Source: an uncultured Bacteroidales bacterium
GTDB taxonomy: Bacteria; Bacteroidota; Bacteroidia; Bacteroidales; Paludibacteraceae
NCBI GenBank assembly: GCA_902799185.1
Contig: CADBZO010000004.1
Coordinates: forward strand, 485-64,484
Reading direction: 5' to 3'
Length of the DNA: 64,000 bases
This document shows positions 39,353 to 61,727 of the stretch, in pieces. Made by a program: the position numbers and the translations under genes. The notes beneath the pieces are model-generated. The model was not told the origin of the DNA. It was given only the letters and a program-made list of their open reading frames with translations, and did no database searches. The stretch's first letter is position 1. Every line of letters begins with the position of its first letter.

Positions 39353-39378
39353 AATGCAGGCTGGTTCTTCAATGAGAG

Positions 39379-40404: not shown

Positions 40405-40407
40405 ATA

Positions 40408-42167: not shown

Positions 42168-42204
42168 AACAGACTTATAAATTCTCATTTATGGAAGAGT
42201 GGAA
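42102..42204 (+). repeat. 103-bp direct repeat, copy 2
   Basis: See 40984-41086. Confidence 0.9.
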
Positions 42205-42742
42205 AGAATACAGATTAGAAGAATTATGCAAAGGGAGAGGAACCTATGGTATAGGGGCTTCAGCAGTTCCTTATGATAAAAGTAAATATACTTATCTACG
42301 CATTACTGATATCAATGATGATGGAACTATAAATAAGAAAGGACTCTTATCTGTAGATTCACCCGAAGCATGTAATTATGTTCTTAGCAAAAACGATATT
42401 GTGTTTGCAAGAACAGGAAATAGCACAGGACGCTCTTATTTTTATGATGGAACAGATGGAGTATTAGTATATGCAGGGTTCTTAATCAAGTTTTCTTTGG
42501 ACGAAAAGAAAGTTAATCCGCGTATTTTGAAATATTACACGCATTCAAATAAATATTATGATTGGGTCAATTCTTTTAATACGGGTAGTACAAGAGGAAA
42601 CATAAATGCACAAACTTATGGAAATATGCCCATATTGCTACCTTCTAGAGCTATTCAAGATAAGATTGTATCTGTTCTTTCTTCTTTAGACAACAAAATC
42701 GAACTCAACCGACGGATAAATGATAATTTGATAGCTGCATAA
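42191..42742 (+). pseudogene. hsdS: Truncated hsdS cassette (one TRD + central conserved region)
   Basis: Starts MEEWKEY, ends LDNKIELNRRINDNLIAA-stop. There is no second TRD. Confidence 0.7.
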
Positions 42743-42743
42743 T

Positions 42744-46900: not shown

Positions 46901-47500
46901 TATAAATATCCGCCTGAGGAAGCTGACAATGCAATGGATATTGTTCTTCGGCAATGTGAACAATGGACTGATAATATTAGTCTATCAACCTCATCACAAC
47001 ATATTACACCTGATCAAAATCAAGAAAATCCCCAAATAAGACCTCTTTATCCTGACTATCGGGAAGGCAGCCTTCCGCTTTATTCCATCCGTGCAGCGTG
47101 TGGTTATTTTGGAGAAGGCGAGGAAGTGGAAGTGCAAGGATGGATTTCCGCAGAAGGTATCGGGCGGCTTAACGAAGATATGTTCGTTGTGCAAGCCGCA
47201 GGCAATTCCATGGAACCGCGTATCCATGATGGCGACTACTGCGTCTTTGAGCGATATAAAGGCGGCTCACGAAACGGGAAGATTGTCCTTGCGCAACACC
47301 GTGGATACTATGACGATGACAATGCCGGAGCCTTCTCCATCAAGGAGTATAATAGTACCAAATCTGCAGATGAGTACGGCAATTGGCAGCATGAGTCTAT
47401 AGAACTCCGTCCGCTAAATCCTGCCTATAATCCCATCGTTCTCACGCCGGATGATATAGAAGATTTCCGCATCATCGGAGAGTTTGTAGCAACACTTTGA
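43934..47500 (+). CDS. hsdR: Type I restriction enzyme R subunit with a C-terminal S24/LexA-like peptidase domain (1188 aa)
   Basis: N-terminal nuclease region (ADIVVFINGLPLVVIELK). Helicase motifs HTQGSGKS, DEAH and TGTP. A DUF3387-like tail. Then GNSMEPRIHDGDYCVF (47201-) ... AFSIKEY ... LRPLNPAYNPIVL ... IIGEFVATL. Confidence 0.85.
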   Translation: MMTYNENNYEYAVIALFQGMGYQHLYGPDIERDYYVPYYAKQLQQSLETINPDKPSAAIQEAISKLKDIDSRNLVLANETFMDYLQHGIEVSWFDGKEQKNDLVYLVEYDPELINRNSFLVVNQWTFVENETEKRADIVVFINGLPLVVIELKSPSREETDASEAYLQLRNYITQIPSLFVYNAFCVMSDMAISKAGTITSSEDRYMEWKTKTGEYESKAHADFDTFFEGMFRRDWLLDILKNFICFSKDEAGSAKILAGYHQFFAVRKAVERTKYATQTEKKEHKGKIGVFWHTQGSGKSLSMVFYAHLLQAELSQPTIIVITDRNDLDDQLYTQFSKCQHFLRQKPEQASSREHLKRLLAGREANGIIFTTMQKFEESSEALSMRRNIVVMTDEAHRGQYGFEEKVDAKTGKISVGIARVIHNSLPNASYIGFTGTPISLKDRDTQEVFGDYIDVYDMTQAVLDNATCPVFYESRVINLRLDEKTLKAIDDAYDQLEEEGATTEQIEKSKKEMSHLEELLGAPETIDSLCQDIIQHYEENRQYELTGKAMIVAYSRPIAMKIYHRMLELRPNWTEKVKVVMTSGNQDPEDWHKIIGNSQYKKELAKRFKDNSDPMKIAIVVNMWLTGFDVPSLATMYVYKPMKGHNLMQAIARVNRVFQDKSGGLVVDYIGIAKALKEAMHDYTKRDKDNYGDTDIKKTALVKFREKLEICRDIFHGFDYSDFQTGTDADRALIIKGGVNFMMCPEKGDVLRVYLKESSLLHSAVTLCRSLLEEDERYEAAFFETVRTLLNRLKGKGKVSKKEINAHIGELLKQSVHSDGVVNLFSDIKAEFSLFDAAFLEEISKMKEKNIAIELLKRLLAERVHLYQKTNVIQAEKFSDMLNASLSNYLKGLLTNEEVIQELLKLAKEIATSEAQGNELGLTMEEKAFYDALTRPQAVKDVYTNEQLVEMTHELTDQLRKNRTIDWQKKETARAGMRRMIKRLLKKYKYPPEEADNAMDIVLRQCEQWTDNISLSTSSQHITPDQNQENPQIRPLYPDYREGSLPLYSIRAACGYFGEGEEVEVQGWISAEGIGRLNEDMFVVQAAGNSMEPRIHDGDYCVFERYKGGSRNGKIVLAQHRGYYDDDNAGAFSIKEYNSTKSADEYGNWQHESIELRPLNPAYNPIVLTPDDIEDFRIIGEFVATL

Positions 47501-47675
47501 CTTTTTATCTCCTAAAATAGTAGACCCCTTTTAACCATGCCCTGTCCGCGTAATTCTGCAAAAAAAAGTTGCTTTCAGGTGATAGATTTTAGGTCTTTTT
47601 TGACTTATATATGGAGGGGTATATAAATACGAATCTATTAACACAAAACACAACGGATAAAATATTATTAGATAT

Positions 47676-48710
47676 ATGTCCAAACAACTACAAATACGCA
47701 ACTCCACGGCTGAGTTCTTGATCTTCCAAGCCGAAGACAAGGCGCAAGGCGTGCAGGTGTTCTACCAAGATGAGACCATCTGGGCTTCGCAAAAAGCCAT
47801 CGCCGCTTTGTTTGATTGCTCAACAGACAACGTAAGTCTGCACTTGAAAAACATCTTTGAGAGCGGAGAATTACAAACGGAGGCAACAACCGAGAAATTC
47901 TCGGTAGTTCAAAAAGAGGGTAATAGAGAAGTTACTCGCTCAGTTCTCTTCTACAATCTTGATGCTATTATTGCTGTCGGCTATCGCGTTAATTCCCGGC
48001 GAGCTACGCAGTTCAGGCAGTGGTGTACGGCTGTGTTAAGGCAGTTTGCCATCCGTGGATATGTCATAGACAAGAAACGCATGGAGAACGGAGCTTTCAT
48101 CAGCGAGGATTACTTCGAGCACCTGTTAGCAGAAATTCGTGAGATTAGGCTCTCCGAACGACGCTTCTATCAGAAACTGACAGATATATATGCAACGGCT
48201 ATCGACTATAACCGTGATGCACCCACCACGCGGGAGTTTTTCGCCAAAGTGCAGAACAAAATGCACTACGCCGTACACGGACAGACGGCTGCGGAACTGA
48301 TTGTATCGCGCGCCAATGCTCAGAAAGAGCACATGGGACTTACCACTTGGGAGAATGCTCCGCATGGGAAGATTGTCAAACCCGATGTGAGCATTGCCAA
48401 GAACTATCTCAACGAAGCCGAATTGGAAGACATGGGACAATTGGTCAACTCTGTTTTGGACGCCGCCGAACGTATGGCCAAACGGCATATCCCGATGACC
48501 ATGGAGGATTGGGCGAAACGTATCGACATCATTCTGGAAGCCACTGACGACAGAATACTGACCGATGCCGGCTCAGTCTCGCATGAGTTTGCACAAGCTT
48601 TTGCAGAGACAGAATTTGAGAAATACCGCGTCATCCAGGACCGTCTGTTTGAGTCAGATTTTGACAAGTTCACTCTGCCGACATTGCCTTTTGAAGATCA
48701 AGAAGATTAA
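47676..48710 (+). CDS. rhuM: RhuM-family protein
   Basis: LFYNLDAIIAVGYRVNSRRATQFRQWCTAVLRQFAIRGYVIDKKRME is characteristic of RhuM. Confidence 0.8.
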   Translation: MSKQLQIRNSTAEFLIFQAEDKAQGVQVFYQDETIWASQKAIAALFDCSTDNVSLHLKNIFESGELQTEATTEKFSVVQKEGNREVTRSVLFYNLDAIIAVGYRVNSRRATQFRQWCTAVLRQFAIRGYVIDKKRMENGAFISEDYFEHLLAEIREIRLSERRFYQKLTDIYATAIDYNRDAPTTREFFAKVQNKMHYAVHGQTAAELIVSRANAQKEHMGLTTWENAPHGKIVKPDVSIAKNYLNEAELEDMGQLVNSVLDAAERMAKRHIPMTMEDWAKRIDIILEATDDRILTDAGSVSHEFAQAFAETEFEKYRVIQDRLFESDFDKFTLPTLPFEDQED

Positions 48711-48730
48711 CCCTACCCTGTCCGCATAAC

Positions 48731-48764
48731 AAAAGTGAGCCGCCTTTCTGGGCGACTCACTTTT
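48731..48764 (+). terminator. Terminator hairpin after rhuM
   Basis: aaaagtgagccgcc-tttctg-ggcgactcactttt. The A/T-rich flanks suggest it is bidirectional. Confidence 0.6.
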
Positions 48765-48765
48765 A

Positions 48766-48803
48766 TCTCCCCCTCTCTTGAGGAGAGGGACGGGGTGAGG
48801 TTA
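48766..48803. repeat. REP-like palindromic unit (CCCTCTC..GGAGAGGG..CGGGGTGAGG)
   Basis: Reverse-orientation copy of unit 1 of the element inserted in mutA (62181-62215). Confidence 0.7.
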
Positions 48804-49099
48804 TTACTCTTGCATCAGCAGTTGCATAACCACTTTCGCAGAGTATGCAACCGGGGTGCCGGGGCCGAAGATGGCGGCAACGCCGGCTTTGTAGAGGAAG
48901 TCATAGTCCTGCGCGGGGATGACACCACCGGCGGTGACCATGATATCCGGACGGCCGAGTTTCTTGAGCTCCTCGATGACCTGCGGGATGAGGGTCTTGT
49001 GACCTGCCGCGAGGCTGGAGACACCCAGTACATGGACGTCGTTCTCCACTGCCTGTTTAGCTGCCTCTGCCGGAGTCTGGAACAACGGTCCCATATCGA
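48804..49099 (-). pseudogene. mutB: Displaced 3' fragment of methylmalonyl-CoA mutase large subunit (B12-binding domain C-terminus)
   Basis: Encodes the same 96 residues (...[14 protein letters not shown]...VVMQLLMQE) as 58821-59116. My hand alignment gives about 18 synonymous differences. Homology stops abruptly at 49099. Confidence 0.85.
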
Positions 49100-49106
49100 T
49101 CGTCAA

Positions 49107-49590
49107 ACGCTGCGTTTAAGCGAGGGCAGAGGATATGCACTTGTATATATCCTATGCCGAGCGTAGCAGGGTCTCTAAGCCGTCATGCCGACAACTTGTT
49201 TGGCGGCTTTAATAAAAAGGCTTAGAGGTATATGGGAAAGGTACAGACTCCGTGCAGAGGCAGCCACAAACAGGCGGGACGATGGACATGGCCGGGGTGT
49301 ATGCGTGGGAGCAGGGCACAAAAGAGACTCAGACCGCGCAAGGGCATAGAAGGAGCACAAAAGAAATTCGGGCGTCCGTACGGATAGCAGGGTCACGGTG
49401 GAGGCAGCCCCGCGCGCAAGGACTACAGACTTCGGCTAAGTCGGTGTCGCCGCTCAGATTCGGGCACAGGGCACACAAGGTTGGCTACGGAAAGGTGGGT
49501 AATGGAAAGGATGCAGGGAATGATCCAGAAAATCTATTGCTAACGAAAGGGAGGATATAACGCAGTTCAATATCCGCAATTTTTATGCTC
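49107..49590 (+). ncRNA. ORF-free purine-rich region with many hairpins (unclassified structured-RNA candidate)
   Basis: Hairpins at 49130-49153, 49177-49209 and 49553-49575, the last followed by a T-run. GGAAAGG / GCAAGG / GGGAA-type segments. The only ORF (49252-49560) is low-complexity. Confidence 0.3.
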
Positions 49591-49646
49591 ACTCCACGCG
49601 CAGAAGAACTATCCCCTCGCACAATATATCTTCTTCTTGCTCAATA

Positions 49647-49745
49647 AACAAAGCCCTGAGCGAAGCGATGACCTTATTAAAAAGGGAAAGAAAATCAACA
49701 AACAAAGCCGTGAGCAGAGCGAACACCTTATTGGGGAAAGAAAAT
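49647..49745. repeat. Two tandem imperfect units of about 48 bp
   Basis: aaacaaagccctgagcgaagcgatgaccttattaaaaagggaaagaaaat / aaacaaagccgtgagcagagcgaacaccttattggggaaagaaaat. Confidence 0.8.
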
Positions 49746-49853
49746 AAAAAACGATACCAAGTTACGATAGTTTTTTGACATAGGCAAAAATATTCCGATT
49801 TAGACGGAAACGCAAAAAACTTACGCATATATCATTGCAAAATCAAAACATTA

Positions 49854-49885
49854 TTTGCTTATCTCGAAAAATTATTGTATCTTTG
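49854..49885 (+). promoter_or_regulatory. Well-formed Bacteroidota promoter TTTG-N20-TATCTTTG with no downstream CDS
   Basis: tttgcttatctcgaaaaattattgtatctttg. The next roughly 240 nt on this strand are non-coding. Confidence 0.5.
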
Positions 49886-49894
49886 TGCTATCGG

Positions 49895-50135
49895 ATACCG
49901 ATTGACAATCGGCGGAATACGAAGAAAAATATAGTAGTGATACAATCACCGCGAAATGGACAAACATTTTGAACCAGAATAGAATTTCTGGAAACGAACA
50001 AAGGTGGGATGTCCGAATAGTATTCGGACGCAATGGACAAACGGCAGTTATTAATTGCGGATGTAAATGAGTGGCGGATTAAATCCATCTGAAACACGAA
50101 GAAAGAAAAACGCGGCACGGGTGTGTCGCGTTGTG
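49895..50135 (+). ncRNA. Candidate small RNA downstream of the orphan promoter
   Basis: Hairpins at 49898-49912, 50011-50029 and 50109-50132 (aacgcg-N12-cgcgtt). AATGGACAAAC occurs twice (49956 and 50032). Confidence 0.25.
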
Positions 50136-50137
50136 GA

Positions 50138-50902
50138 TTATTTAAACCAACCGTCTTCTTTGTTGCGAGCGCGGTAATAGTCGTTGCGCTCTTGCTTGGA
50201 CATGCCTTTGGTATCTTTGTTGTACTGAGACATGCGCTCATAGTAATCAGCAGAAGCGTCTATGCCGCTCTGCCATGCTTCTTTCATGCCTTCCGCTGTA
50301 TATTCGAATACCCTATAGTTATCTATGTGTAAAGAAGCCGCTGTTTGCGCTACATTCTGGTTCGTCCCCATAAATACAAACATAACTCCATGCTCTTTTA
50401 AGGCATCTATGCGGTCTATTACTGCGAAAATTGAATAGCGTTTAGAAGCATTTTCGAGACCATCGCTGATAATGGTAACAACTGCCGTGGCATTTTCAAG
50501 ACTATCCAATTTGATTTTGAGAGAATCTAGTGAAATACCTATGGCATCCAATAACGCAGTGTTGCCTATTGGTCTATAATCATCGAGCAATAAATCAGGA
50601 ATATTCCGAATAGTATCGCAGTCAAAGACATTCGTTACAGAATCGTTAAAAAACGATAAAGTGATATAATTCTGTTGCACAAGAGCATTTTGTTCCTGTG
50701 CGTTACGAACTACTTCCAAAATGCCATTATAACCTTGCACCGCAGCATCTCGAAGAGGATACATGGAAGCACTCCGATCTAAGATCACGATATTATAAAT
50801 CTTAACAACATCGACATTTTCGTCGGTAGTTTGAGCATGTTGCTTGGCACAACCGAATAGAACGAAAACAGAAAAAATCAATAATAGAAATCTACTTTTC
50901 AT
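50138..50902 (-). CDS. Lipoprotein with von Willebrand factor A (vWA) domain
   Basis: Lipobox VLFGC. MIDAS-like ILDRSASM. ATG at 50902 preferred over 50935. Confidence 0.65.
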   Translation of the reverse strand: MKSRFLLLIFSVFVLFGCAKQHAQTTDENVDVVKIYNIVILDRSASMYPLRDAAVQGYNGILEVVRNAQEQNALVQQNYITLSFFNDSVTNVFDCDTIRNIPDLLLDDYRPIGNTALLDAIGISLDSLKIKLDSLENATAVVTIISDGLENASKRYSIFAVIDRIDALKEHGVMFVFMGTNQNVAQTAASLHIDNYRVFEYTAEGMKEAWQSGIDASADYYERMSQYNKDTKGMSKQERNDYYRARNKEDGWFK

Positions 50903-51623
50903 GTGCGCAAGGTTTAATAATTTCATACGGAACAAAGCTCATAAAGGTATCAGCGGCAAAGCATGCGATGTCGTATTGATTATATACAAAAGTCAAACCT
51001 CTATCGGAAATAATGAAGTTGTTATTTGGCAGAATCGTGTCTACCAAAATTCCCCATGCCTTGTCGGATTGACGGATATGACTATCTAAATACGCAGAGA
51101 CGGATGAAACATCACTCGCTAGGTTTTCTATAGAAATCGGTTCGCCAGTGTGCGTATCGAAGTAGCGATAGTAATAACCCTCTGTACCATGTGCGCCTAA
51201 GTCGTACCATTTTGTGTGACAATAATATCCGTAAATCGAATCGTCCAGATGATACGTACGCAGACTGATATAGTCGTTGTGCTGATACGCGTATATAGAT
51301 TCAGTATCTTTTACGACCACAGCCGGATACTCATACAGCTTCTGCAAATCTGCGGTATCAAACCTTGCACGATTGCTTGTGGTGTCGTTCAAGAACTCTG
51401 CTACAATATGGTCGTGAATCTTTGTCCATGCTTCATTTGTTGGTAACGGACATTCTATGTCGCGATAGATCTGAGATGACATTTCAGGCATATCATCAGA
51501 TGCAGGGAGTGTGATTGCACTATTGTAATAATAGCACACAAGCTGAGGGGTGTTATCTGCTTTATTGCACGCCACAAGTGCGAATGCTAATAGAGCTATT
51601 GAGAATATTTTAGATGTTTTCAT
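50892..51623 (-). CDS. Lipoprotein, DUF3298/DUF4163-like
   Basis: Lipobox ALVAC. The C-terminal GLTFVYNQYDIACFAADTF resembles the DUF3298 end. Call is from memory. Confidence 0.5.
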   Translation of the reverse strand: MKTSKIFSIALLAFALVACNKADNTPQLVCYYYNSAITLPASDDMPEMSSQIYRDIECPLPTNEAWTKIHDHIVAEFLNDTTSNRARFDTADLQKLYEYPAVVVKDTESIYAYQHNDYISLRTYHLDDSIYGYYCHTKWYDLGAHGTEGYYYRYFDTHTGEPISIENLASDVSSVSAYLDSHIRQSDKAWGILVDTILPNNNFIISDRGLTFVYNQYDIACFAADTFMSFVPYEIIKPCAHEK

Positions 51624-52273
51624 TAGTCGCGATATTTCAAGGGTTTCCAGATATCTTCTCTTGCGTTTAACTCTTTAAGTGCTCGTTTGACGCGGTTAAG
51701 CATTTTGCCGTTCCAAAGAATCTCTTTGTAGGGATATATAAAACGCACACGGCACTTGTCTCCGTGACGATATACATTAAACTTTTCTATAGTTTCATTC
51801 CACAGAACCGGCATGTGAAACCGCAAGATGTGATTCGGATTCGCACGCTTGTTCGCCATCTCCTCGCATTGTTCCAAATAGGTTATAGGATCATCCGTCA
51901 AATCCGTATAGGGATATACCACGTGCACCTTATATTGACCATCGCGAATAACCAGTATACCCAAAGGTTTATCTCCTTCATTAAGGGAATATATTTCAAA
52001 CTCTTTAGAATCCTTATCTTCAGCACGAACCTTTTGAAACTCCTCAAAGAGCAAATCAAGCAACCATCTTGTTTTCTCCTCGGTCGTCAACTCCGGATCT
52101 ACAATAGAGCCGACCTGCTCGTGCAGAAAGCCTTTGATTGTAAAGCGCTTCTCTTTGCGGTTCTTATATAGGAAGCACGCCTCAATTAAATCCAAATTAG
52201 CAGGAACATCTTGCTCGTGATATTCCATTGTGCTTGTCTCTATGAAATGATATTTAATCATACACTTATCCAA
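51623..52273 (-). CDS. Hypothetical protein (216 aa)
   Basis: ORF whose start and stop overlap both neighbours. No recognisable family. Confidence 0.55.
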   Translation of the reverse strand: MDKCMIKYHFIETSTMEYHEQDVPANLDLIEACFLYKNRKEKRFTIKGFLHEQVGSIVDPELTTEEKTRWLLDLLFEEFQKVRAEDKDSKEFEIYSLNEGDKPLGILVIRDGQYKVHVVYPYTDLTDDPITYLEQCEEMANKRANPNHILRFHMPVLWNETIEKFNVYRHGDKCRVRFIYPYKEILWNGKMLNRVKRALKELNAREDIWKPLKYRD

Positions 52274-53351
52274 AAAGTTTTTGAGTTTTTATTTTGATTT
52301 CATTCTCACGTCTCTTAATTTCGCCATCCAACCACTTCAATGCCTCATCGGGAAAAGGAGACTCAGATGAAGAAAGATTTGCCCCAGACTGAAACTCTAC
52401 TGACCATTGGGAATTGGAGTCTACAGCATTATTATATCTTATTCGGCAGCGCGACAATTCAGCCCGAAGTTCATCAAGCTCCTTGCGCCTCGACCAATTC
52501 AACCAATCTATTGCATAGCGACTATCTCTTAATTCACACCGTTTTATTAAAATAGTATCTCCGAGAAAAATATTATCCGGTTGACTATTCTTCAAAGAAT
52601 GACGATAAAACATTATTTCCTCTGCAACAAAATCATCAGTCTCTTTCGCAGAATAAAAAGCTCCAATTATATCCTCATATAGATAGACTACCTTGTAAAA
52701 CCCTGGCGCATAATAGTTATACCTATAGCCCTGCAATAATGGTCTATGTTCCCAAGAATTATCATCTTCCAAATTGTAATCACAATTCTCCCTAAGTCTC
52801 CAATCTAGCATTATGTCATATGCAATCTTTCCGCTCCAAGAATATGCCTTAATATCATCTAGATTATAGTTGTTTTTCCTATAAAACGCATATTCTTTTG
52901 CTGGCAAATAAGTACCGCATTGAAAAGGATGATGCATCACTACCGATGAACGAGAAGACGATATGAACTCACTCCATTTACATTTATATTCTTCCCATTT
53001 ACCACGCATTCTTTCCGAATCAAAATCAAACTTGTCATCGAAGAAGTGGATATAGTCTACCAGTGCAGAAGCAGAAGAAAACGGGCGCACTCGTCCTTCA
53101 TGTACTTTCTGATGGCACGACTCACACAACGTAATTAAGGTGTCATCTGGATATTCCCACGGCAACAATGAAGAAACATACCCTTTGTGATGTACATGCA
53201 AAAATTCATCAGCGGCTTCTGCTCCACATTCCTGACAAGTATAATTATCCCTACGAAGTATCTCATGTCTGCGCGATTGCCATTCATTAGTAAGCAATTG
53301 CTCTTGATAAAAATTACTATACTCTGCGCTATATTTATCTGCTGATGCCAC
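52266..53351 (-). CDS. HNH nuclease domain protein with an unknown roughly 270-aa C-terminal region
   Basis: RRDNYTCQECG...HVHHKGY...LITLCESCHQKVH forms an HNH zinc-finger pattern. Confidence 0.7.
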   Translation of the reverse strand: MASADKYSAEYSNFYQEQLLTNEWQSRRHEILRRDNYTCQECGAEAADEFLHVHHKGYVSSLLPWEYPDDTLITLCESCHQKVHEGRVRPFSSASALVDYIHFFDDKFDFDSERMRGKWEEYKCKWSEFISSSRSSVVMHHPFQCGTYLPAKEYAFYRKNNYNLDDIKAYSWSGKIAYDIMLDWRLRENCDYNLEDDNSWEHRPLLQGYRYNYYAPGFYKVVYLYEDIIGAFYSAKETDDFVAEEIMFYRHSLKNSQPDNIFLGDTILIKRCELRDSRYAIDWLNWSRRKELDELRAELSRCRIRYNNAVDSNSQWSVEFQSGANLSSSESPFPDEALKWLDGEIKRRENEIKIKTQKLFG

Positions 53352-53363
53352 AGTATTTGGTGT

Positions 53364-53624
53364 TTATAAAGGCATTAATTTATACACAAGTTTTAAATCC
53401 TCAAGGAAACGTTCCGCTAAAGGAATATACATATAAGATTGTCTTCTGAAATCTATAAAAGCATTCACTTGCTGCTCTATTTCCTCCCATACATACGGGG
53501 TGTGTAATTCTTCTCTGTAGAGTTCCGTAAAATGACTAAGCAACTTACCATCATTAGAAATGGAATCAATTGCGAAATATTTACCCAATATCTCGTTCAA
53601 ACTATCTGATAATGCTTCGCTCAT
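53364..53624 (-). CDS. Hypothetical protein (86 aa), first gene of the five-gene operon
   Basis: ORF 12 nt upstream of the HNH gene, with a promoter-like palindrome just upstream. Confidence 0.5.
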   Translation of the reverse strand: MSEALSDSLNEILGKYFAIDSISNDGKLLSHFTELYREELHTPYVWEEIEQQVNAFIDFRRQSYMYIPLAERFLEDLKLVYKLMPL

Positions 53625-53642
53625 GTTGTATGTGCTTTAAAT

Positions 53643-53666
53643 GTAATTTTGCGACTGCAAAATTAC
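53643..53666. promoter_or_regulatory. Palindrome carrying TAATTTTG -7 boxes on both strands
   Basis: gtaattttgc-gact-gcaaaattac. The minus-strand box lies 33 nt upstream of the ATG at 53624. Confidence 0.45.
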
Positions 53667-53826
53667 TAAAAAGATTTGACATGTACAAGTTTTCGGGCGA
53701 GAAAGTGCGGAGAAAGTATATTTTGCAGGGAAAATACGAAAAAACTCGCAGTTAGAGGCTGCGAGTTTGGGAAAACCCGGGGGCTTCACCGACACTACGT
53801 TCGGGAGAGGACTTTCCGGGACAGGA

Positions 53827-54718
53827 TTATTGCCAAAGGGTTTCTTTGTCCCAATCTGTAGGGAAACCCATAGCACTTATATCAGCATCGGGAAACTCTG
53901 CAAAGAGGGCTTTCAGTCGAGCAGGGAACGTTGTGTTAGGATTGACCTTCAGCAACAGATATTGGATGATGCACAATACATAGTACAATCGATCACTGCG
54001 TACCGGAGTTGATATGAACATGCCATTAACCTTACGCGGGAATAATGGACGGATACGGAGCGTTTTATTCCAAAGACGGCTATGGTGCGCGCATATATTT
54101 CGCACGTACACAATACTATGCAACCATGACTCAAACACACTATCGCTCACTCCATAGTAATTTGCAATCCTCCGTTTCGTGAGACTCGGTTTGAGCAACT
54201 TATAAAGCATTGAAAGCGTGCCAAAAGAAGTGACTTCCATCGTCATCCATGCCGGTGGAAATGCATCATCATACTTGCGTTTGAAAAGCAAGATTTGGTC
54301 ATCGTCCGTTCTGTCTAACTCTGATTGCAGACTGACTGGCAATGAGTCCCGCGTGCTTGGTCGTACTGACAAAATTGGCAGCATCAGCAAACCAATAGAT
54401 ATCCACTTCATCCGAAAGCGTATAAGCCATTTGCGTACGGATGGAGACCTCAATCTTTTCCAACTCTCCGGCAATCAACTTGCGGAGGCGACTATCAAAC
54501 TTATACAACGTATAAGCTTGCTCAAAGGTTGCATCGTTCTTGAAAGTATGCAGCACTTTGTCGCTCATCAACGGCATTAGGTAACTCTTCAATCGGAAAT
54601 AACTAATCTGTTGCAATGTATGCAACGCTTTGGACTCATCCGCGAACGAAAGTCCATTGCCTTTGAGCAACGCTATCTGCTGCTGAAAGGATAGTGGTTT
54701 GTCGGTATAATTAGCCAT
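53827..54718 (-). pseudogene. Abi_2 (AbiD/AbiF-like) abortive-infection gene, frameshifted
   Basis: The N-terminal 139-aa ORF (54299-54718) and the C-terminal ORF (53827-54474) overlap in different frames. Together they give the Abi_2 layout (ISYFRLKSY...RNICAHHSRLWN). Confidence 0.7.
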
Positions 54719-54870
54719 ATTTACAAAAAAGACTTACCCTAAGCGCGCTGATCTTACGGGAAGCGGGGTAAGTTTGTTGGTGCAAAAGTACTGCTTTTTT
54801 CTGACATGTGCAAATATTTGAAGCAGAAAATGCAGAAAAAGTGTAAAATTTAATAAAAAATTAACAAAAA

Positions 54871-55191
54871 ATGGCAATTATGAACGAAAAACAAATGAGT
54901 TTGGAGCAAATGTGTGCGATGATTGAGAAAATGCACGCGAGTTTAGAAGATTTGGAAAAAGCCTTAAATGAGGGAGTTTTGGAAGGGGATGAGAAATGGA
55001 TGTTTCCGGAAGGTAATTACACGGTCTTAGCGATATGGCTGCTGTATGATCCAAAGGCGCGGAGATTGTTTGCGGTGAACGAGCGGAAGAGTTGGGTTGA
55101 ATTAGCGGAGAGACTGACAAAATACGTAGAATGGATGGTGGATTGGGATTGTTTACGAAGGAATTACACGCGAAAAAGCTTTCGAAAATAA
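54871..55191 (+). CDS. Hypothetical protein (106 aa)
   Basis: ORF followed by the hairpin ttgtccg-N7-cggacaa (55205-55226). Confidence 0.5.
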   Translation: MAIMNEKQMSLEQMCAMIEKMHASLEDLEKALNEGVLEGDEKWMFPEGNYTVLAIWLLYDPKARRLFAVNERKSWVELAERLTKYVEWMVDWDCLRRNYTRKSFRK

Positions 55192-55255
55192 AAATACAGC
55201 CAAGTTGTCCGCTAAAAACGGACAAGTTGTCCTCGCACAGGTCAAGGAAAAGCAG

Positions 55256-55263
55256 TAATTTTG
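55256..55263 (+). promoter_or_regulatory. -7 box TAATTTTG
   Basis: Matches TAnnTTTG upstream of the ATG at 55328. Confidence 0.4.
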
Positions 55264-55327
55264 CGGCGGAATTTCACAGCTAACGGCTGGCGCCAGCCAT
55301 TTTAGTAACCAATAAAACAGTATTAAA

Positions 55328-55867
55328 ATGGCAAAAGAGTATTATTGCTACCCCCGTGAGGGGTTTGTGCCGGAGGTTTGCACGCATGAAGGGCTTTATC
55401 TCGCACATGCACAAGGCACTCCATTCTGGCTGTCTGAAAAGGGCGATGTATTCATTCGTTACGCCAACGGGCGTTGGCACAGGCGTATCGTAGATACATG
55501 TGCCCGAAAAAGTTACAACACACGCACACCGAATGGTGTCATTAGAGGCAGGATATACCCGGGTGTGACGTACAAAGGCGTACACTACCGCGTGCATATC
55601 CTCATGGCACTGGCTTGGATCGGTTCCATTCCCGCAGGTTGGGAGGTGGATCATATCAACGGCGACATCAACAACTGGACGCGCGACAACATCCGTATCG
55701 TGACCGTGGCGGAGAACTACCGATGCGCGGTTATACTGCGGGCAAGGCGCATGGTGGCACGGCAAGACAATGATCCAAGCAAACTGCCGGAGAACATGTC
55801 TTCCGAAGAATTACTCCAATTGTTTAACATGTACAACGTAGCCGGTGACGTTTACGCCGGAGAATAA
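55328..55867 (+). CDS. Phage-type HNH (HNH_3) endonuclease
   Basis: HILMALAWIG...WEVDHINGDINNWTRDNIRIVTVAEN. Confidence 0.7.
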   Translation: MAKEYYCYPREGFVPEVCTHEGLYLAHAQGTPFWLSEKGDVFIRYANGRWHRRIVDTCARKSYNTRTPNGVIRGRIYPGVTYKGVHYRVHILMALAWIGSIPAGWEVDHINGDINNWTRDNIRIVTVAENYRCAVILRARRMVARQDNDPSKLPENMSSEELLQLFNMYNVAGDVYAGE

Positions 55868-55868
55868 T

Positions 55869-56255
55869 ATGAACACAACGAATTTGAAAGAGTTGCGTGA
55901 GTTGCGCAACCAAGAAAAAGCTATTAAAGCACGTATTGACGAGATTTCTACCGAGGCGACCAACGAAGCCGTTGCCATCCTTGCTGAAAAGGGGTTGGAG
56001 AAAGGCGAATTTGAGGTGGAAGGCGTTGGTAAGTTCCAACTCCAGCGCACCGAGGTTTTCGACTTTGCCGATTACCACAAGTACCAACAGGAACAGGCGG
56101 TAAAATGGCGCGAGAATGCCAAGGAGAAAGTCAAAGAGCAAAATCTGGTCAAAGCCCGTACCGCTGTCATGAACGGATACGTGAAGACGTTCGTGGAGTT
56201 GTACCCAGACCAAGAGCCGGACGAGATCAAGCTGAAGGTGAAAGTGATAGAGTAA
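55869..56255 (+). CDS. Hypothetical protein (128 aa)
   Basis: The ATG lies directly after the HNH stop. Charged, coiled-coil-like sequence. Confidence 0.5.
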   Translation: MNTTNLKELRELRNQEKAIKARIDEISTEATNEAVAILAEKGLEKGEFEVEGVGKFQLQRTEVFDFADYHKYQQEQAVKWRENAKEKVKEQNLVKARTAVMNGYVKTFVELYPDQEPDEIKLKVKVIE

Positions 56256-56364
56256 AGACAAAAAAGAAAAGTAGCAAAAGAATAAAAAGAAAATCGTAGT
56301 GGGGAGACTCTCTGCATAGAAAATACTCTCTCTGTAGTCCCCCTCGCTATTTTTAAGAAAATTT

Positions 56365-56778
56365 ATGGAAGCTTTAGACGACATTTTGAGGAAACGTAGA
56401 AGCTGGGCGGTGATGGTGGACTTGCTGACACCCAACATCGCTCCGCAGTATGCACACATGGTGAAGCCGGCACAGGAGCAATGGAACGCTATTCCGTTGC
56501 AACGGCAGAGGCAGATTTATGTCACGCTTTGGGAGCAGAAACTACGCGGAGTGGCCATCAAAAATCATCCGTACTATGCTATCAAAGACTGTGTGCCGAT
56601 GCCGTTCAACTGGAACGGTACGGACCACCTCAACAGTATGATGAAGCATTTTAAGATGGTCAGTGCCCGGTACTATGACCGCTACGGCATCTACACCGCC
56701 CAAGCCGCTGAAGCGTTCCAGTTGAATGATGTTAAACCTTTAAATTTCAAAGCAAATGGCAAGCAAAGAAACGAATGA
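56365..56778 (+). CDS. Hypothetical protein (137 aa)
   Basis: ORF in a same-strand overlapping series. Confidence 0.5.
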   Translation: MEALDDILRKRRSWAVMVDLLTPNIAPQYAHMVKPAQEQWNAIPLQRQRQIYVTLWEQKLRGVAIKNHPYYAIKDCVPMPFNWNGTDHLNSMMKHFKMVSARYYDRYGIYTAQAAEAFQLNDVKPLNFKANGKQRNE

Positions 56779-57055
56779 AGCGTTTATGGAACGCATAATT
56801 AACGAGATTGATTTATGGCAAGAAGGAAACCGGAAACATCGAGCCGCTATGGTGGTATTCATGGACGAGAACGGGAAGAACCGGTTCCAAGCATTCTCGG
56901 ACAACAAGGGCAAGAACCCGTGGCTGCGGTTCATCGGCATCATGTCAGGCGGTTTGGCGAGTTGTGAGGCTCTGTATAACAGCGCGGTGCTAATGGTGAA
57001 ATTAGCAACGAAAATTCGTAACAGAAAGGAAAAAGAAAATGCTGCGGATAAGTAA
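56756..57055 (+). CDS. Hypothetical protein (99 aa)
   Basis: ORF that overlaps its neighbours at both ends. Confidence 0.5.
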   Translation: MASKETNEAFMERIINEIDLWQEGNRKHRAAMVVFMDENGKNRFQAFSDNKGKNPWLRFIGIMSGGLASCEALYNSAVLMVKLATKIRNRKEKENAADK

Positions 57056-57263
57056 AGAACAGGTGGCGCGGAACTTGGCAAACAAAGTGCCGATAGCCGA
57101 TGACAAGACACCGATACAGGCATTGAACATACTTGTACACGGTTGGCTCAAATACCGGAAATACGGGAAGAAGTACTACTTTGCGATACACAACAGAGAT
57201 TTCTTGTATATCACCGAAATACATGATTTAAGCAGTTATGCAGGGTGCGATTTAAGCCAATAA
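57039..57263 (+). CDS. Hypothetical protein (74 aa)
   Basis: ORF overlapping the upstream stop. Confidence 0.4.
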   Translation: MLRISKEQVARNLANKVPIADDKTPIQALNILVHGWLKYRKYGKKYYFAIHNRDFLYITEIHDLSSYAGCDLSQ

Positions 57264-57306
57264 AATCGTTTTTTCAATCGTGATTAAATTTGCGGGTTCA
57301 CATTTT

Positions 57307-57336
57307 TTGCGGGCTCGCATTTTTGTTGTACCTTTG
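57307..57336 (+). promoter_or_regulatory. Promoter TTG-N19-TACCTTTG (copy 4 of the conserved promoter)
   Basis: ttgcgggctcgcatttttgttgtacctttgcac. Confidence 0.6.
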
Positions 57337-57445
57337 CACCGTCGTTTGAGAGAAGGACAAAATCCGAGGTCTTGAACACGTATGAGATACGTATGAGAGA
57401 CGGATAAAAAATATTTATTGTTAAACACTTAAAACCTAAACTATT

Positions 57446-57757
57446 ATGGCAAAGTACAAACCTATTGACATGGTAAAAGAGTACCGTGGGAAGATTTGCG
57501 AACATTCGGACACGTATTTCCAGAAACGCGGACGCACGCTGTGCACCGGTCGCATCTGTGAACCGCGTGACTTGGCAAAAAAGCCGTACTCCGAGAAAGA
57601 GATTGTAACTCACACCAAGTTCCAGCAGACCTATGCTGCTATCAAAGCACTGACACCGGAACAAAAAGCGGAGTACAAAACCGCGTTCGAGGCGCAGAGC
57701 AAGTACACCTCATTGCGAGGATATATCTTCGCGAAAGAGTATGCGAAATTAGCGTAA
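57446..57757 (+). CDS. Hypothetical protein (103 aa), same family as 34851-35201
   Basis: Shares the N-terminal ..V.EYRGKI motif. The leader contains the duplicated 11-mer acgtatgagat/acgtatgagag. Confidence 0.55.
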   Translation: MAKYKPIDMVKEYRGKICEHSDTYFQKRGRTLCTGRICEPRDLAKKPYSEKEIVTHTKFQQTYAAIKALTPEQKAEYKTAFEAQSKYTSLRGYIFAKEYAKLA

Positions 57758-57820
57758 TACAAGCGGGATGCCATCCCGCGCAAAGAAAGATCATTAACCT
57801 AAACTTTAACTATTTTTATT

Positions 57821-58201
57821 ATGGCAGATGTAGTTTTTGAGGACCCGATTCACCACATTTCGGGCAAGATTTCAAGAAAGTACCGGACCTGTTACAACTA
57901 CCGCCGTTGGAGCGGGCGTAAGTACACGAGCATTCACGGAGACCGGACTACGCCGGTGAGTGCCGAGGAGAAAGCACGACAGGAGCGGTTCAAGGTAGTG
58001 CGTCTGGCGGCACGGAGCCGTGCGATGGATCTGAGCAAGCTGACCTACGACCAGATGGATTTCGTCGAGGAGCGCAAGACCAAAGGCACAGCGTTCAAGT
58101 ACACGACCTACAAGGGTTGGCTGTTCGGAAAGGCGTGGAAATGCTACGACGAGAGTACGGGGCAAGTGAACATGCCGGAGCGGTTGAACACCGTGGGGTA
58201 A
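57821..58201 (+). CDS. Hypothetical protein (126 aa), same family
   Basis: IHHISGKISRK...TPVSAEEKARQERF. Confidence 0.55.
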   Translation: MADVVFEDPIHHISGKISRKYRTCYNYRRWSGRKYTSIHGDRTTPVSAEEKARQERFKVVRLAARSRAMDLSKLTYDQMDFVEERKTKGTAFKYTTYKGWLFGKAWKCYDESTGQVNMPERLNTVG

Positions 58202-58232
58202 ATTGTTAAACCGTTAAACCGTTAAATTGTTA
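58201..58232. repeat. Four tandem 8-bp units (AAYYGTTA)
   Basis: aattgtta aaccgtta aaccgtta aattgtta lies immediately before the ATG at 58232. Confidence 0.9.
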
Positions 58233-58435
58233 TGACTAAACAGCAGATTTATAAAATGGTAGCAACAGTGGCTACCGCTATCGTGACGTGTGTGGCGATT
58301 GCGCTGGGGCTGAGTTCGTGCAACGTGACAAGGACAATCACCACCCGAAGCGAGGCATGGCAGAAAGGCGACACAAGCGTGGTTATTCAAACCAAGACGG
58401 TGGAGACCTACGATGCGTCGAAAAAGGGGTTGTAA
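58232..58435 (+). CDS. Small lipoprotein (67 aa)
   Basis: Lipobox LGLSSC. The C-terminus QTKTVETYDASKK recurs in the partial gene at 63958-64000. Confidence 0.55.
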   Translation: MTKQQIYKMVATVATAIVTCVAIALGLSSCNVTRTITTRSEAWQKGDTSVVIQTKTVETYDASKKGL

Positions 58436-58478
58436 CTCGCGGAAACAGCCGCGAGAACTAAACGGCAAAGAGCGGAGG

Positions 58479-58505
58479 GGAGCGGCAGAGATGCCGCTCC
58501 TTTTT
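58479..58505 (+). terminator. Rho-independent terminator
   Basis: ggagcggc-agagat-gccgctcc followed by ttttt. Confidence 0.7.
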
Positions 58506-58820
58506 CCGATAGACCGATAGATCGGGTTATCGAGAGATCGAAGGAAAAGACGAACCGGCATCAAATGCCGGGCTAATTGACGAAGAAAAACGCGCATGGA
58601 TACGCGGAGCATAAACGCTACATCCGACCGATGGTAATTATAAATACGCGAAGCGTTGCTTTTCCCCCTTTAAATTTTTCGCGAAGCGAGTAAATAAAAT
58701 AATAAAGAGCAAGAAGAAGATATATTGTGCAAAGAGGGGTATTATTCTGAGCGAGGAGAGAGTATAAAAAAAGCGGGCAACTATGAAATAGAAGCCCGCC
58801 TTTCGTTAGCAAGAGATGGA

Positions 58821-59294
58821 TCATTCCTGCATCAATAATTGCATAACCACTTTGGCGGAGTAGGCAACCGGGGTGCCGGGGCCAAAGATGGCGGCAACAC
58901 CGGCTTTGTAGAGGAAGTCATAGTCCTGCGCGGGGATGACACCACCAGCGGTGACCATGATATCCGGACGGCCGAGTTTCTTGAGCTCCTCGATGACCTG
59001 CGGGATGAGGGTCTTGTGACCTGCCGCAAGAGAGGAGACACCCAGTACATGGACATCGTTCTCCACCGCCTGTTTAGCTGCCTCTGCCGGAGTCTGGAAC
59101 AACGGTCCCATATCGACATCAAAGCCGCAATCGGCATAACCGGTGGCTACCACTTTGGCGCCACGATCATGGCCATCCTGTCCCATCTTGGCAATCATGA
59201 TACGGGGTTGACGACCTTCTTTCTTGGCAAACTCTGCCGTGAGACGACAAGCTTCCTGGAAGTTATCGTCGTTCTTAGTACCTGAAGCGTACAC
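58821..59294 (-). CDS. mutB: Methylmalonyl-CoA mutase large subunit, B12-binding domain portion (separate frame)
   Basis: [18 protein letters not shown] (DxHxxG B12 motif) ...GVSSLAAGH... The frame stays open upstream to 59336 and reads [26 protein letters not shown]. Confidence 0.85.
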
Positions 59295-59329
59295 GCCTGA
59301 AATAGTTCTGATGGTTGCTTTATAACGTC

Positions 59330-60904
59330 CTACGACTTTCTCGCAGGCATCGGAGATCTCGCCGAGCCGTCAGCCCATTTCTGTACGGACTCGGTGATCT
59401 CTGCAAGGGCAGCCTGCACGGCTTTCTCGTCACGGTTAGCACGGAGTTCAGCGAGGCGTGCTACCTGTTGCTCACGCACGGCGGTGTTATCAATCTCAAG
59501 GATATCAATCGGGTCTTCGTGCTCCAGACGATACTCGTTGATACCGATGATCTTCTGTTTGCCGGAGTCGATACGCGCCTGTGTACGAGCGGCGGCTTCC
59601 TCGATACGCATCTTAGGAATACCGGTCTCGATAGCTGCTGCCATACCGCCCAGTTTCTCGATCTCCTGGATATGTGCCCACGCTTTCTCCATGAGTTCCT
59701 GGGTCAGCGACTCTACGTAGTAGGAACCGCCCCACGGGTCGATCTCCTTGCAGATCTTGGTCTCCTCCTGGATGTAGATCTGGGTGTTACGAGCGATACG
59801 AGCGGAGAAGTCCGTCGGCAGCGCGATGGCCTCGTCGAGTGCGTTGGTGTGGAGCGACTGGGTGTGACCGAGTGCAGCTCCCATCGCCTCGATACAGGTA
59901 CGGCCTACGTTGTTGAACGGGTCCTGCTCGGTGAGCGACCAACCGGAGGTCTGACAGTGAGTACGGAGCGCCATGGATTTCGGGTTCTTGGCACCGAAAG
60001 ACTTGACGATCTTCGCCCAGAGCATACGTCCTGCACGCATCTTGGCAATCTCCATGAAATGGTTCATACCGATTGCCCAGAAGAAGGACAGACGCGGAGC
60101 GAAAGTGTCCACATCCATGCCGGCGTTGACACCTGCGCGGAGGTACTCCATACCATCGGCAAGCGTGTAAGCCAACTCGATATCCGCCGTAGCACCGGCT
60201 TCCTGCATGTGGTAACCGGAGATGGAGATGGAGTTGAACTTAGGCATGTTCTGCGAGGTATATTCGAAGATATCAGCGATGATCTTCATGGAGAACTTAG
60301 GCGGATAGATATAGGTGTTACGCACCATGAACTCCTTGAGGATATCGTTCTGGATGGTACCTGCCATCTCCTCGAGTTTGGCACCCTGCTCGAGTCCGGC
60401 GTTGATATAGAACGCGAGGATAGGCAGCACGGCGCCGTTCATGGTCATGGAGACGGACATCTTATTCAACGGAATACCGGCGAAGAGGACTTTCATGTCC
60501 TCCAGCGAGCAGATGGACACACCTGCTTTGCCGACGTCACCTACGACGCGCATGTTATCGGCGTTGTAGCCGCGGTGGGTCGGGAGGTCGAAGGCTACGG
60601 ACAGACCTTTCTGACCGGAAGCGAGGTTACGGCGGTAGAAAGCGTTGGACTCCTCTGCGGTGGAGAATCCGGCGTACTGGCGGATGGTCCAGGGACGCAG
60701 CGGATACATGGCGCTGTACGGGCCACGGAGGAACGGAGGGATACCGGAGACGTAGTCGAGGTGCTCCATGCCTTTGAGGTCCTCTTTGGTATAGATCGGC
60801 TTGACGTCGATGAGCTCCGGCGTCTGCCAGTCGGCGGTGTTCGGGCCAACTACTTTGCTGGCCGAAACCTGTGTAATGTCAATATCTTTAAAATTCGGCT
60901 TCAT
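59330..60904 (-). CDS. mutB: Methylmalonyl-CoA mutase large subunit, catalytic barrel portion
   Basis: [18 protein letters not shown]...[11 protein letters not shown]... is typical MCM. It ends prematurely after ...[13 protein letters not shown]. Confidence 0.85.
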
Positions 60905-60945
60905 AACTTTTCAATTTTGAGTCAACAATTTTAGTTTTTCTTTTA

Positions 60946-61110
60946 GGTCAACAATTAAAGACAATTAAAGACAATTTCTTTTCATTGCTGGCTTGTCTCT
61001 TGAGTCGACTATTAAAAACAATTTAAGACAATTTTGATAATTGTTGGTAATTGTGGATAATTGTTGACTTATCTTTTGTGGTCAACAATTAAAGACAATT
61101 TAAGACAATT
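60946..61110. repeat. Decamer-phased ACAATT arrays (direct and inverted) flanking the GxxExxY gene, left side
   Basis: ggtcaacaattaaagacaattaaagacaatt (60946-60976, and again at 61080-61110) with the inverted partner taattgttggtaattgtggataattgttgac (61038-61068). Confidence 0.85.
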
Positions 61111-61111
61111 T

Positions 61112-61588
61112 CTATCTTCTCATCTCGGCGATGAGATGATGAATATCGGATAATTTAATATTATCTGGAATCTTGTATCTGAAGAATGAAACATCATTGG
61201 TTTCTGCATCGTAAAAATACTTCTCCACATAAACACTTCTGCCAAAGTTAATCAACAGACCTATCGGCTTTTGAGTAATCCTAAGGTAGTTGAATAACTG
61301 CGCCCTGTGCTCGGGAATAACTTCTTCTACGGCTTTCAGTTCAATGATAATATCCTCCTCTACAACAATATCCAAACGATAGTGCTTCTCCAACAACTGA
61401 CCTTTGTAGAACACAGGAAACTCCACTTGGTTCTCTGCTCGCAGACCGAGCGCTTTGAGTTCCAAGCAAAGACATTCCTCATAAATAGCTTCCGAGAGGC
61501 CATAATGTAACTCCCGATGAACCTCATGTGCTGCGCCAATAATGGCGTATATCAGGTTCGCGTATGCTATTTGTTCTAATTCGGTCAT
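61112..61588 (-). CDS. GxxExxY-family protein (PD-(D/E)xK-like)
   Basis: GLSEAIYEECL (the GxxExxY motif), DIVVEEDIIIELKAV, and IGLLINFG at the end. Confidence 0.75.
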   Translation of the reverse strand: MTELEQIAYANLIYAIIGAAHEVHRELHYGLSEAIYEECLCLELKALGLRAENQVEFPVFYKGQLLEKHYRLDIVVEEDIIIELKAVEEVIPEHRAQLFNYLRITQKPIGLLINFGRSVYVEKYFYDAETNDVSFFRYKIPDNIKLSDIHHLIAEMRR

Positions 61589-61620
61589 AAATTAATTGTT
61601 CTTTTTTAGTTTTTATATGT

Positions 61621-61697
61621 GGTCAACAATTAAAGACAATTAAAGACAATTCGAGTCATTTTTTTTAATTGTTGGTAATTGTTGATAATTGTTGACT
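61621..61697. repeat. Decamer-phased ACAATT arrays, right side
   Basis: ggtcaacaattaaagacaattaaagacaatt (61621-61651) and taattgttggtaattgttgataattgttgac (61667-61697). Confidence 0.85.
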
Positions 61698-61727
61698 AAA
61701 AAAACTATAATATTGTTGACTTGTTAG

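Follow-up and report, generated by a model that had tools for sequence, protein, structure and literature searches.

The duplicated end of mutB

The window analysed here is a stretch of 64,000 nucleotides (nt) from an uncultured Bacteroidales bacterium of the Paludibacteraceae (assembly GCA_902799185.1, contig CADBZO010000004.1, positions 485 to 64,484). It comprises mutB, the gene for the large subunit of methylmalonyl-CoA mutase (58821-60904, minus strand), which lies downstream of mutA (63701-61728). The initial annotation had reported that the final 296 bp of mutB occur twice in direct orientation, and a repeat search recovers both occurrences as a single 297-nt family (48803-49099 and 58820-59116) with 94% identity, which is far beyond chance. 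One of them, copy B (58821-59116, minus strand), is contiguous with the gene and forms the end in present use; we read it as island-borne. The other, copy A (48804-49110, minus strand), is an orphan comprising the last ~300 nt of mutB, which we read as the displaced native end. The DNA between them, a putative genomic island, is the subject of this analysis. Related loci in other genomes and contigs are designated by L numbers.

A base-by-base comparison of 48804-49099 with 58821-59116 gives 18 differences, all 18 of which are synonymous, in agreement with the approximate count made previously. They include an AGC/TCT switch at a serine codon, two leucine codons that differ at position 1, and the stop codons (TAA versus TGA). 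Both copies encode the same 96 residues, MGPLFQ onwards; copy A forms an intact open reading frame (ORF) of 96 codons starting at the methionine of FDVD-MGPLF. Its homology to the mutB of other species reaches 8-11 nt beyond the repeat, to about 49107-49110. The first 49 nt in the sense of the gene (49051-49099 and 59068-59116) are identical, as had been stated, but their proposed role as a crossover core is unsupported, because the crossover positions inferred in copy A differ among hosts. This 49-mer is also nothing special, since a longer stretch of 80 nt in the middle of the repeat is identical as well. Likewise, the idea that the two copies derive from two lineages is too simple: both are mosaic.

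Copy A is followed by a native-type flank (48731-48803) with a bidirectional terminator hairpin (about 48733-48762), shared with a RhuM gene, and a unit resembling a repetitive extragenic palindrome (REP; 48771-48801). The terminator, GAGCCGCC..GGCGGCTC, also follows copy A in L112, L117 and L121, and is unlike that of copy B. The REP-like unit does recur in mutA, as claimed, in inverted orientation at 62182-62212. There (62168-62275), the unit (CCCTCTCC..GGAGAGGG..GGGGTGAGG) lies inside an in-frame linker insertion that is missing from relatives.

The mutB gene of the window carries a 58-nt deletion at 59366/59367, between short CCG repeats, of a sequence that is present in all relatives. The deletion takes out GKGENLLALAVKAAGLRAS of the interdomain linker and, by the resulting frameshift, leaves two ORFs (59330-60904 and 58821-59294). 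In the same strain, L083 has an intact mutB of 713 amino acids (aa), and contig L088 stops exactly at the deletion point; the deletion could reflect either polymorphism within the population or an error of assembly. The ~820 nt between mutA and mutB (60905-61727) hold a PD-(D/E)XK_3 nuclease-family gene (61112-61588), bordered by arrays of periodic repeats of ~10 nt (GTCAACAATTAAAGACAATT), in both direct and inverted orientation. This insertion is missing from L004, L142, L143 and L150, where mutA adjoins mutB.

Gene content of the island

The genes between the repeats form two arms. The cargo arm (49589-54718, minus strand), which is variable and transcribed towards the copy of the mutB end described below as copy C, encodes a VWA-like lipoprotein, a DUF3298 lipoprotein, proteins of 216 aa and 86 aa without family, a 361-aa HNH protein and a frameshifted Abi_2. 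The conserved small-ORF module (54871-58435, plus strand), transcribed towards mutB, encodes p106, an HNH_3 endonuclease (55328-55867), p136, p137, p99, p74, p103, p126 and the lipoprotein-like p67. The HNH_3 gene, part of the module that lies next to the conserved mutB, is labelled a homing endonuclease by PADLOC. Between module and mutB, the intergenic region (58436-58820) consists of the terminator of p67 (about 58478-58504) and a segment designated d' (58707-58820). Segment d' holds the terminator that serves the resident mutB and one partner of a 24-nt inverted repeat, and is 100% identical in L085-L093. Promoter-like sequences of the GTACnnTTTGCAC type are found at the divergence point of the two arms (54782-54811 and 55235-55264); they are 85% identical to 34683-34722, near tRNA-Ala, and suggest outward transcription of the island from its centre.

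The initial annotation recognised no integrase between the repeats, and the profile scans, here and in annotated relatives, bear this out. With Pfam, PHROGs and PADLOC, the ORFs of 49100-58820 gave no integrase, transposase, relaxase or capsid, and the only nucleases were HNH and HNH_3; terminase and type IV secretion genes were also absent from the scans of this interval. The same databases assign no family to about ten of the small proteins. A decayed integrase is not hidden in the island, because the largest non-coding gap, of 489 nt, is too short to contain one. Integrase, transposase, relaxase and capsid genes were equally absent from about ten other annotated islands of the same design, a precomputed Pfam annotation covering about 20 related loci showed no recombinase family, and no recurrent recombinase was present among 118 ORFs flanking the cassettes described below.

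The most conserved module protein is p126, which occurs in multiple copies in a genome; its family comprises about 620 uncharacterised proteins. A profile search of p126 against the PDB gave nothing below E = 0.1, its AlphaFold2 model (mean pLDDT 48) is too poor to use, and the protein is absent from the viral contigs of IMG/VR. From p99 to p67, the module is 98-100% identical among five lineages.

To the left of copy A, a type I restriction system has three hsdS genes and, among them, a shufflon-type tyrosine recombinase (39379-40404). One of these hsdS genes (41087-42090) is absent from L081. The system belongs to a defence cluster that extends from the tmRNA/tRNA-Ala to copy A (33671-48710) and comprises a Schlafen/AlbA_2 ATPase, DUF2971, type I restriction-modification, an FRG protein and RhuM, together with an HsdR bearing a C-terminal S24 (LexA-like) peptidase domain.

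An inverted third copy and an invariant junction

BLAST of related contigs against the window revealed a third copy of the mutB end, which the initial annotation had overlooked. Positions 49219-49642 are an inverted copy, ~70% identical, of 58707-59120, a segment consisting of the mutB end and the 114 nt past its stop codon (d'). Copy C (49219-49530, plus strand), head-to-head with copy A, is ~70% identical to copy B, with many indels, enriched in purines and non-coding. It is followed by d (49531-49642, plus strand), the inverted homologue of d', which is poorly conserved among species (0.43-0.59). At their inner ends, d and d' match each other as a perfect inverted repeat of 24 nt (49619-49642 and 58707-58730). 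Two tandem 54-nt units (49641-49748, plus strand) come next; they match sequences in L093, L101, L104 and L107, and related units lie at the outer end of p126/DUF5675 modules elsewhere. Copies A, B and C have a common start position in mutB, at the boundary between GGCTTTGATGTC and GATATGGG.

The 5' boundaries of A and C are separated by a spacer of 108 nt (49111-49218), which has a strong fold as DNA (z = -5.0), with two hairpins. Hairpin 1 (49125-49158) is a 12-10-12 palindrome, GGCAGAGGATAT-GCACTTGTAT-ATATCCTATGCC, of which the window, including the hsdS recombinase region, holds no second copy. Hairpin 2 (49173-49227) makes up the right part. The spacer is not degenerate mutB sequence, as the alignment scores of 11 and 9 fall within those of shuffles.

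Copy A, spacer and copy C together constitute a cassette of 710 nt, which forms the far border of the island. It is present in at least 30 other contigs: the exact spacer 28-mer GGATATGCACTTGTATATATCCTATGCC located it in 11 species-level genomes and 19 metagenome contigs, and had no match among viral contigs. The limits of homology are always the stop codon of A at one side and a point near the end of C at the other, with unrelated flanks among 12 species-level genomes. Across these 12 genomes, the spacer region 49090-49209 is 100% identical, and copy C is 93-97% conserved although it is degenerate. In copy A, conservation is 0.96-0.99 at codon positions 1 and 2, and at position 3 it is 0.85 in the 5' half and 0.69 in the 3' half. 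When 16 intact cassettes are aligned, the invariant part narrows to a junction core at about 49083-49181, which takes in ~17 nt from the start of A, the junction and hairpin 1, with one-base exceptions in L128 and L146. The interior of hairpin 2 is exchanged for unrelated sequence in L131, L136, L137 and L146, and L114 has a 19-nt deletion there. From the spacer ATG at 49176 through C, a region made up mostly of C, 55 sites in 325 nt are variable, versus 0 in 120 nt of spacer, a contrast that points to constraint on the spacer. In our reading, the invariant palindromic junction would have an additional sequence-specific role, perhaps as the site of a protein, possibly a recombinase, that acts in trans.

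Among genomes, copy C varies by indels of 1-2 nt and lacks third-position bias. As its degenerate form is fixed and travels as such, C is not decaying in place. The ORF that runs through the spacer and C from ATG 49176 is open for 119-195 aa in five genomes and for 54 aa here, and was rejected as a gene in view of the 1-2-nt indels and the missing third-position bias. A known RNA in the GC-rich non-coding stretch was also rejected, as Rfam gave no match at E <= 1 across 48000-61800. A diversity-generating retroelement does not apply either: there is no reverse transcriptase, and the mismatches between C and B are indels and pyrimidine-to-purine changes of all kinds, not adenine-specific ones. 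Small insertions of two kinds occur in the cassettes, namely a 110-180-nt unit (GCGGCGATC..GATTAAGTT..AACAAATGTA..TCCTCTCAAATCAA) and an AT-rich unit of 143 nt, in which a promoter motif of the Bacteroidetes type (TAATTTTG) is directed into copy A. They are situated at window positions ~49047-49084 in L113, L120, L133 and L142, in hairpin 2 in L146, and at 49073/49074 in L114, L121 and L124.

The two opposed mutB ends recall the CTX phage, which has no recombinase of its own and carries two opposed target-like sites about 90 nt apart, of which, after integration, one functional site and two non-functional copies result (PMC3089051). By analogy, the element would travel as single-stranded DNA, its mutB end and copy C could anneal over the 108-nt spacer, and the forked hairpin would mimic the mutB target for a host recombinase. 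We consider such a folded single-strand attachment site very improbable. The arms are ~300 nt long with 70% identity and many indels, and their pairing is not maintained: 40 of the 46 variable positions changed on one side only, and the variants break 30 pairs and keep 11, with one compensatory-type change. The target is mutB coding sequence and no dif-like 11-6-11 site is seen in the spacer, the island scans contain neither a rolling-circle Rep nor filamentous-phage genes, and the absence of p126 from viral contigs points in the same direction.

Related islands and empty sites

The island recurs at mutB in other Bacteroidales. Its layout, about 9.9 kb long, is found in L093, L142, L144, L146 and L149, in the common order flank, A, spacer, C, cargo, module, d' and B-mutB, and the same design is present in dozens of rumen and gut Bacteroidales genomes. 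Direct repeats of the target at both ends are also seen in L093, L142 and L146. The flanks differ (RhuM, PIF1 helicase, Y4jQ), and so does the cargo, which includes ATPase_2 with Flg_new, lipoproteins and Schlafen; variable cargo was seen across L093, L142, L144-L149 and L147. Other assemblies of the window strain confirm the structure, and the contigs of one sample break exactly at the repeat (L081-L083, L088). Modules adjoin C in some genomes and B in others. The HNH_3 gene is present in all mutB-linked modules and in most other modules, while the L104-type modules beside C are without it. No integrase-bearing island at mutB was found in a search that covered 80 mutB loci, 30 cassette loci and 20 module loci. 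In L150/L151 (24 contigs; L151 7044-10990), a module lies beside mutB without cargo, orphan copy or cassette. This module directly abuts a TetR/efflux operon, and mutB encodes 740 aa there, with an extra ~80 nt in the linker.

The A side is mostly flanked by housekeeping genes (dapA-ligA, glyA, gyrA, gcvT and others), and the C side by cargo or module genes. Beside A in L133 and L137 lies the orthologue (89.6% and 78.7% aa identity) of the gene directly after mutB in the island-free L003, in the same orientation. Nucleotide collinearity with L003 runs straight through the stop codon, from A through the terminator to the next gene. L003 and L133/L137 thus form an empty-site/occupied-site pair, of the kind that the initial annotation had suggested looking for. 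The flanks of L130, L132 and L136 are likewise orthologous with those of L001, L002 and L038. Because, in these related lineages, A and its flank are collinear with an island-free mutB end and its downstream gene, A is the displaced native end and B completes the gene. Together with the recurrent layout, these pairs uphold the earlier proposal that foreign DNA entered the 3' end of mutB, brought a substitute end and left the native one at 48804-49099. A picture of two att copies, though, leaves out the inverted copy C and the invariant spacer, its most unusual features.

A local duplication of the mutB end followed by gene accumulation, or an invertible switch that swaps ends B and C, would dispense with mobile DNA altogether. 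Short local tail duplications do exist in L007, L095 and L124, the segments B+d' and C+d are inverted repeats around 9 kb with the perfect 24-nt inner end, and modules may lie beside either copy. From the sequence comparisons, however, this explanation is largely refuted and has a very small chance of being right. Identity of 95-100% in the spacer and C, among hosts with ~78% identity in A tails and flanks, calls for horizontal spread, and empty sites exist. Swapping B and C would inactivate mutB, because C is degenerate and non-coding. A shufflon or invertible gene-end switch was rejected for that reason, and because the island contains no invertase and none of about 50 loci has C attached to the mutB body.

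Proposed exchange by homologous recombination

Our preferred reading, to which we give an even chance, is that 49111-59116 is a genomic island without its own recombinase, which has a fixed insertion point ~300 nt before the end of mutB and is moved mainly by homologous recombination. Gain, loss and reshuffling of the island would then occur mainly through the ordinary recombination of the host, with the duplicated mutB end and the mutB body (or the module) as homology arms. With these arms, the entry of incoming DNA would do no harm to any naive mutB, whether it takes place as a double crossover or as a circle integrating in the Campbell manner. The island could be lost again when A recombines with B, and exchange between carriers, between the conserved module and the cassette anchors, would swap the cargo.

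This reading is supported by copy A itself. Its sequence changes from cassette type to host type at a distance from the junction that differs among hosts: ~133-141 nt in L137 and L136, 204 nt in L104, 228 nt in three loci, and 246-264 nt in eight loci. In L137, copy A also contains an internal patch. This host-variable switch point favours homology-driven exchange through the duplicated gene end. Conservation in A drops with distance from the junction. Copy B is also more variable than its surroundings in the island-bearing lineages (0.92-0.96 versus 0.97-1.0 for mutB just upstream and 1.0 for d'), with the excess confined to the repeat. Relative to the island-free L001, identity is 99.4% just upstream of the boundary and 86.6%, in patches, just inside it. 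The tails of A and B do not split into a host clade and an element clade. The stretch from p99 up to and including the final ~520 nt of mutB shows 98-100% identity among lineages with 84-92% identity in mutA and 84-95% in the surroundings. Extra mutB tail fragments with other boundaries are present in L007, L095, L124, L093 and L144. In other species, short extra tails (63-210 nt) whose 5' boundaries are unlike that of the cassette, just after the stop or a few kb after it, occur at L007 10587-10646, L095 1676-1885, L124 2663-2801 and L060 16129-16218.

Several points weigh against homologous recombination as the main mover. It explains neither the origin of the A-spacer-C structure, nor the invariance of the ~100-nt junction while the neighbouring C varies, nor the common mutB start of A and C; a defined recombination site fits these three features better. 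Variable change-points could also arise if a site-specific event were followed by gene conversion between the two copies, and the change-point consensus is dominated by related sequences. A module without an orphan copy, as in L150/L151, requires a later deletion or a different history. For the lineage of the window itself, no empty site was found: synteny with the window downstream of mutB is absent in 80 species-level relatives at both the nucleotide and the protein level. An exact RhuM match occurs only within the same strain. An excision product or circle was not found for this lineage either.

These points lead to a serious alternative that we regard as possible but less likely, namely site-specific integration by a tyrosine or serine recombinase supplied in trans, for example from a conjugative element, with a core in mutB between GTC and GATATGGGACC. 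The invariant ~100 nt with the 12-10-12 palindrome would then be an arm or core site, at the right junction, and the change-points would result from later conversion between A and B. The palindrome has the geometry of a recombinase site, A and C start at the same position of mutB, there are insertion hotspots at ~49074 and in hairpin 2, and att-flanked elements without an integrase have a precedent in the cis-mobilizable elements (CIMEs; PMC5704250). However, no candidate enzyme was found near any cassette, except for one serine recombinase 9 kb away in L126. The palindrome is unique within the window, also near the hsdS recombinase, and the junction of B has no visible partner site beyond the shared mutB sequence. 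The variable change-points, with one copy carrying an internal patch, and the tail fragments with other boundaries are further difficulties. More than 30 cassettes whose flanks are unrelated share one and the same junction sequence, but common descent can account for this. Since all cassettes share the junction by descent, its fixed position is not independent evidence either way.

Modules beside other conserved genes

Relatives of the p103-p126 part of the module converge on the 3' ends of rRNA operons in L094, L096 and L100 (in the order module, 5S, 23S), and on the 3' end of the gene for pyruvate:ferredoxin oxidoreductase (PFOR) in L106 (10001-14401). As modules adjoin rRNA operons and PFOR, they are multi-copy, and contigs end just beyond them. 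In L097, two head-to-head 5S rRNA ends (11475-11627 and 12695-12849), each consisting of the last ~54 nt and the terminator, are 94-100% identical. Each fragment is faced by a module, and the geometry is the one seen for A and C at mutB. No flanking repeats were found around the module copies at other loci. The comparison hints that the design may be applicable to other conserved genes.

It is tempting, although rather unlikely, that the small-ORF module (HNH_3, p99, p74, p103, p126 and p67) and the palindromic junction constitute a new integrase-free mobility system for the 3' ends of mutB, rRNA operons and PFOR, which would carry a replacement end and leave head-to-head fragments of the target. 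If this were true, the paired 5S fragments of L097 would be a second example.

The position of these modules also bears on a homing-like spread, in which the HNH_3 endonuclease would cut island-free mutB (or rRNA operon ends) near the boundary and repair from a carrier would bring in the island with co-conversion. The enzyme is encoded in every mutB-linked module and in most others, and its PADLOC label fits this role. The modules adjoin very conserved genes (mutB, 23S-5S rRNA and PFOR), conservation forms a gradient around the junction, and the 98-100% block covers the module and the mutB end. Nevertheless, the HNH_3 gene lies outside the most conserved block, with its 3' end being the least conserved part (0.71), and the L104-type modules beside copy C do without it. 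Simple homing would also replace the native end, not displace it. An intact target is kept at the resident mutB-B junction, so that self-cleavage would need to be avoided, and no cleavage site can be inferred. Judged from these sequence patterns, homing is distinctly unlikely.

Relation to known systems

The closest precedents for the replacement of the gene end are e14 and phage 21 at icd of Escherichia coli. There, the gene runs into the prophage, and the substitute end differs mainly at synonymous sites (PMC13626634). The original C-terminal fragment, icdC, is orphaned beyond e14, and excision rejoins the gene with it (PMC13626634). The mutB island similarly lies inside the 3' end of a gene for a metabolic enzyme, with a synonymous substitute end and an orphaned native fragment. 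In contrast to these integrase-encoding prophages, it has no integrase, capsid or transfer genes, its orphan end adjoins an invariant hairpin spacer followed by an inverted third copy, and the inferred crossovers vary.

For islands that are flanked by att sites and lack recombination genes, the closest class is that of the CIMEs. Those of streptococci are without recombination and transfer genes and are thought to depend on another element (PMC5704250, PMC6323972). The mutB island resembles them in being flanked by repeats of a gene 3' end and in carrying cargo without recombination or transfer genes. Its repeat, however, is 300 nt of coding sequence and not a short core. One example of a CIME is found at the 3' end of fda, together with ICESt1/ICESt3. 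CIMEs are recognisable as deletion derivatives of known integrative and conjugative or integrative and mobilizable elements that use the same site, whereas the mutB island has no integrase-bearing relative at mutB among about 150 loci.

With the CTX phage and other integrative mobile elements exploiting Xer (IMEX), the island shares the lack of an own recombinase and two opposed target-like sequences about 90-110 nt apart at one end, and, as in the CTX phage, a functional target is restored at the element's opposite end (PMC3089051). Unlike dif, the mutB target is protein-coding, the arms are about 300 nt instead of about 28 nt and show no compensatory evolution, and genes for single-strand replication are absent.

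Integrase-less hotspots such as defence islands hold variable defence cargo between conserved core-gene anchors. The mutB islands are comparable in their cargo (Abi_2, HNH, ATPases, TIR and Schlafen), in its turnover among close relatives and in the absence of an integrase. They differ in that one anchor is a duplicated gene end inside a gene, with a dedicated conserved cassette, and not one of two neighbouring core genes. Three features are unusual here: many islands are without any recombinase, a cassette shared across species combines an invariant palindromic junction with a fixed inverted arm, and there is evidence that exchange is driven by homology.

Known gene-end islands with a substitute end bring an integrase. 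The design at mutB is without one, yet it has spread over many species of rumen and gut Bacteroidales. The cassette is an easy marker for mutB islands in metagenomes and explains assembly breaks at mutB, and the invariant hairpin junction is a testable candidate for a DNA-protein interaction. If the duplicated end is a portable homology arm, accessory DNA would move between related species by host recombination only, leaving the metabolic gene unharmed.

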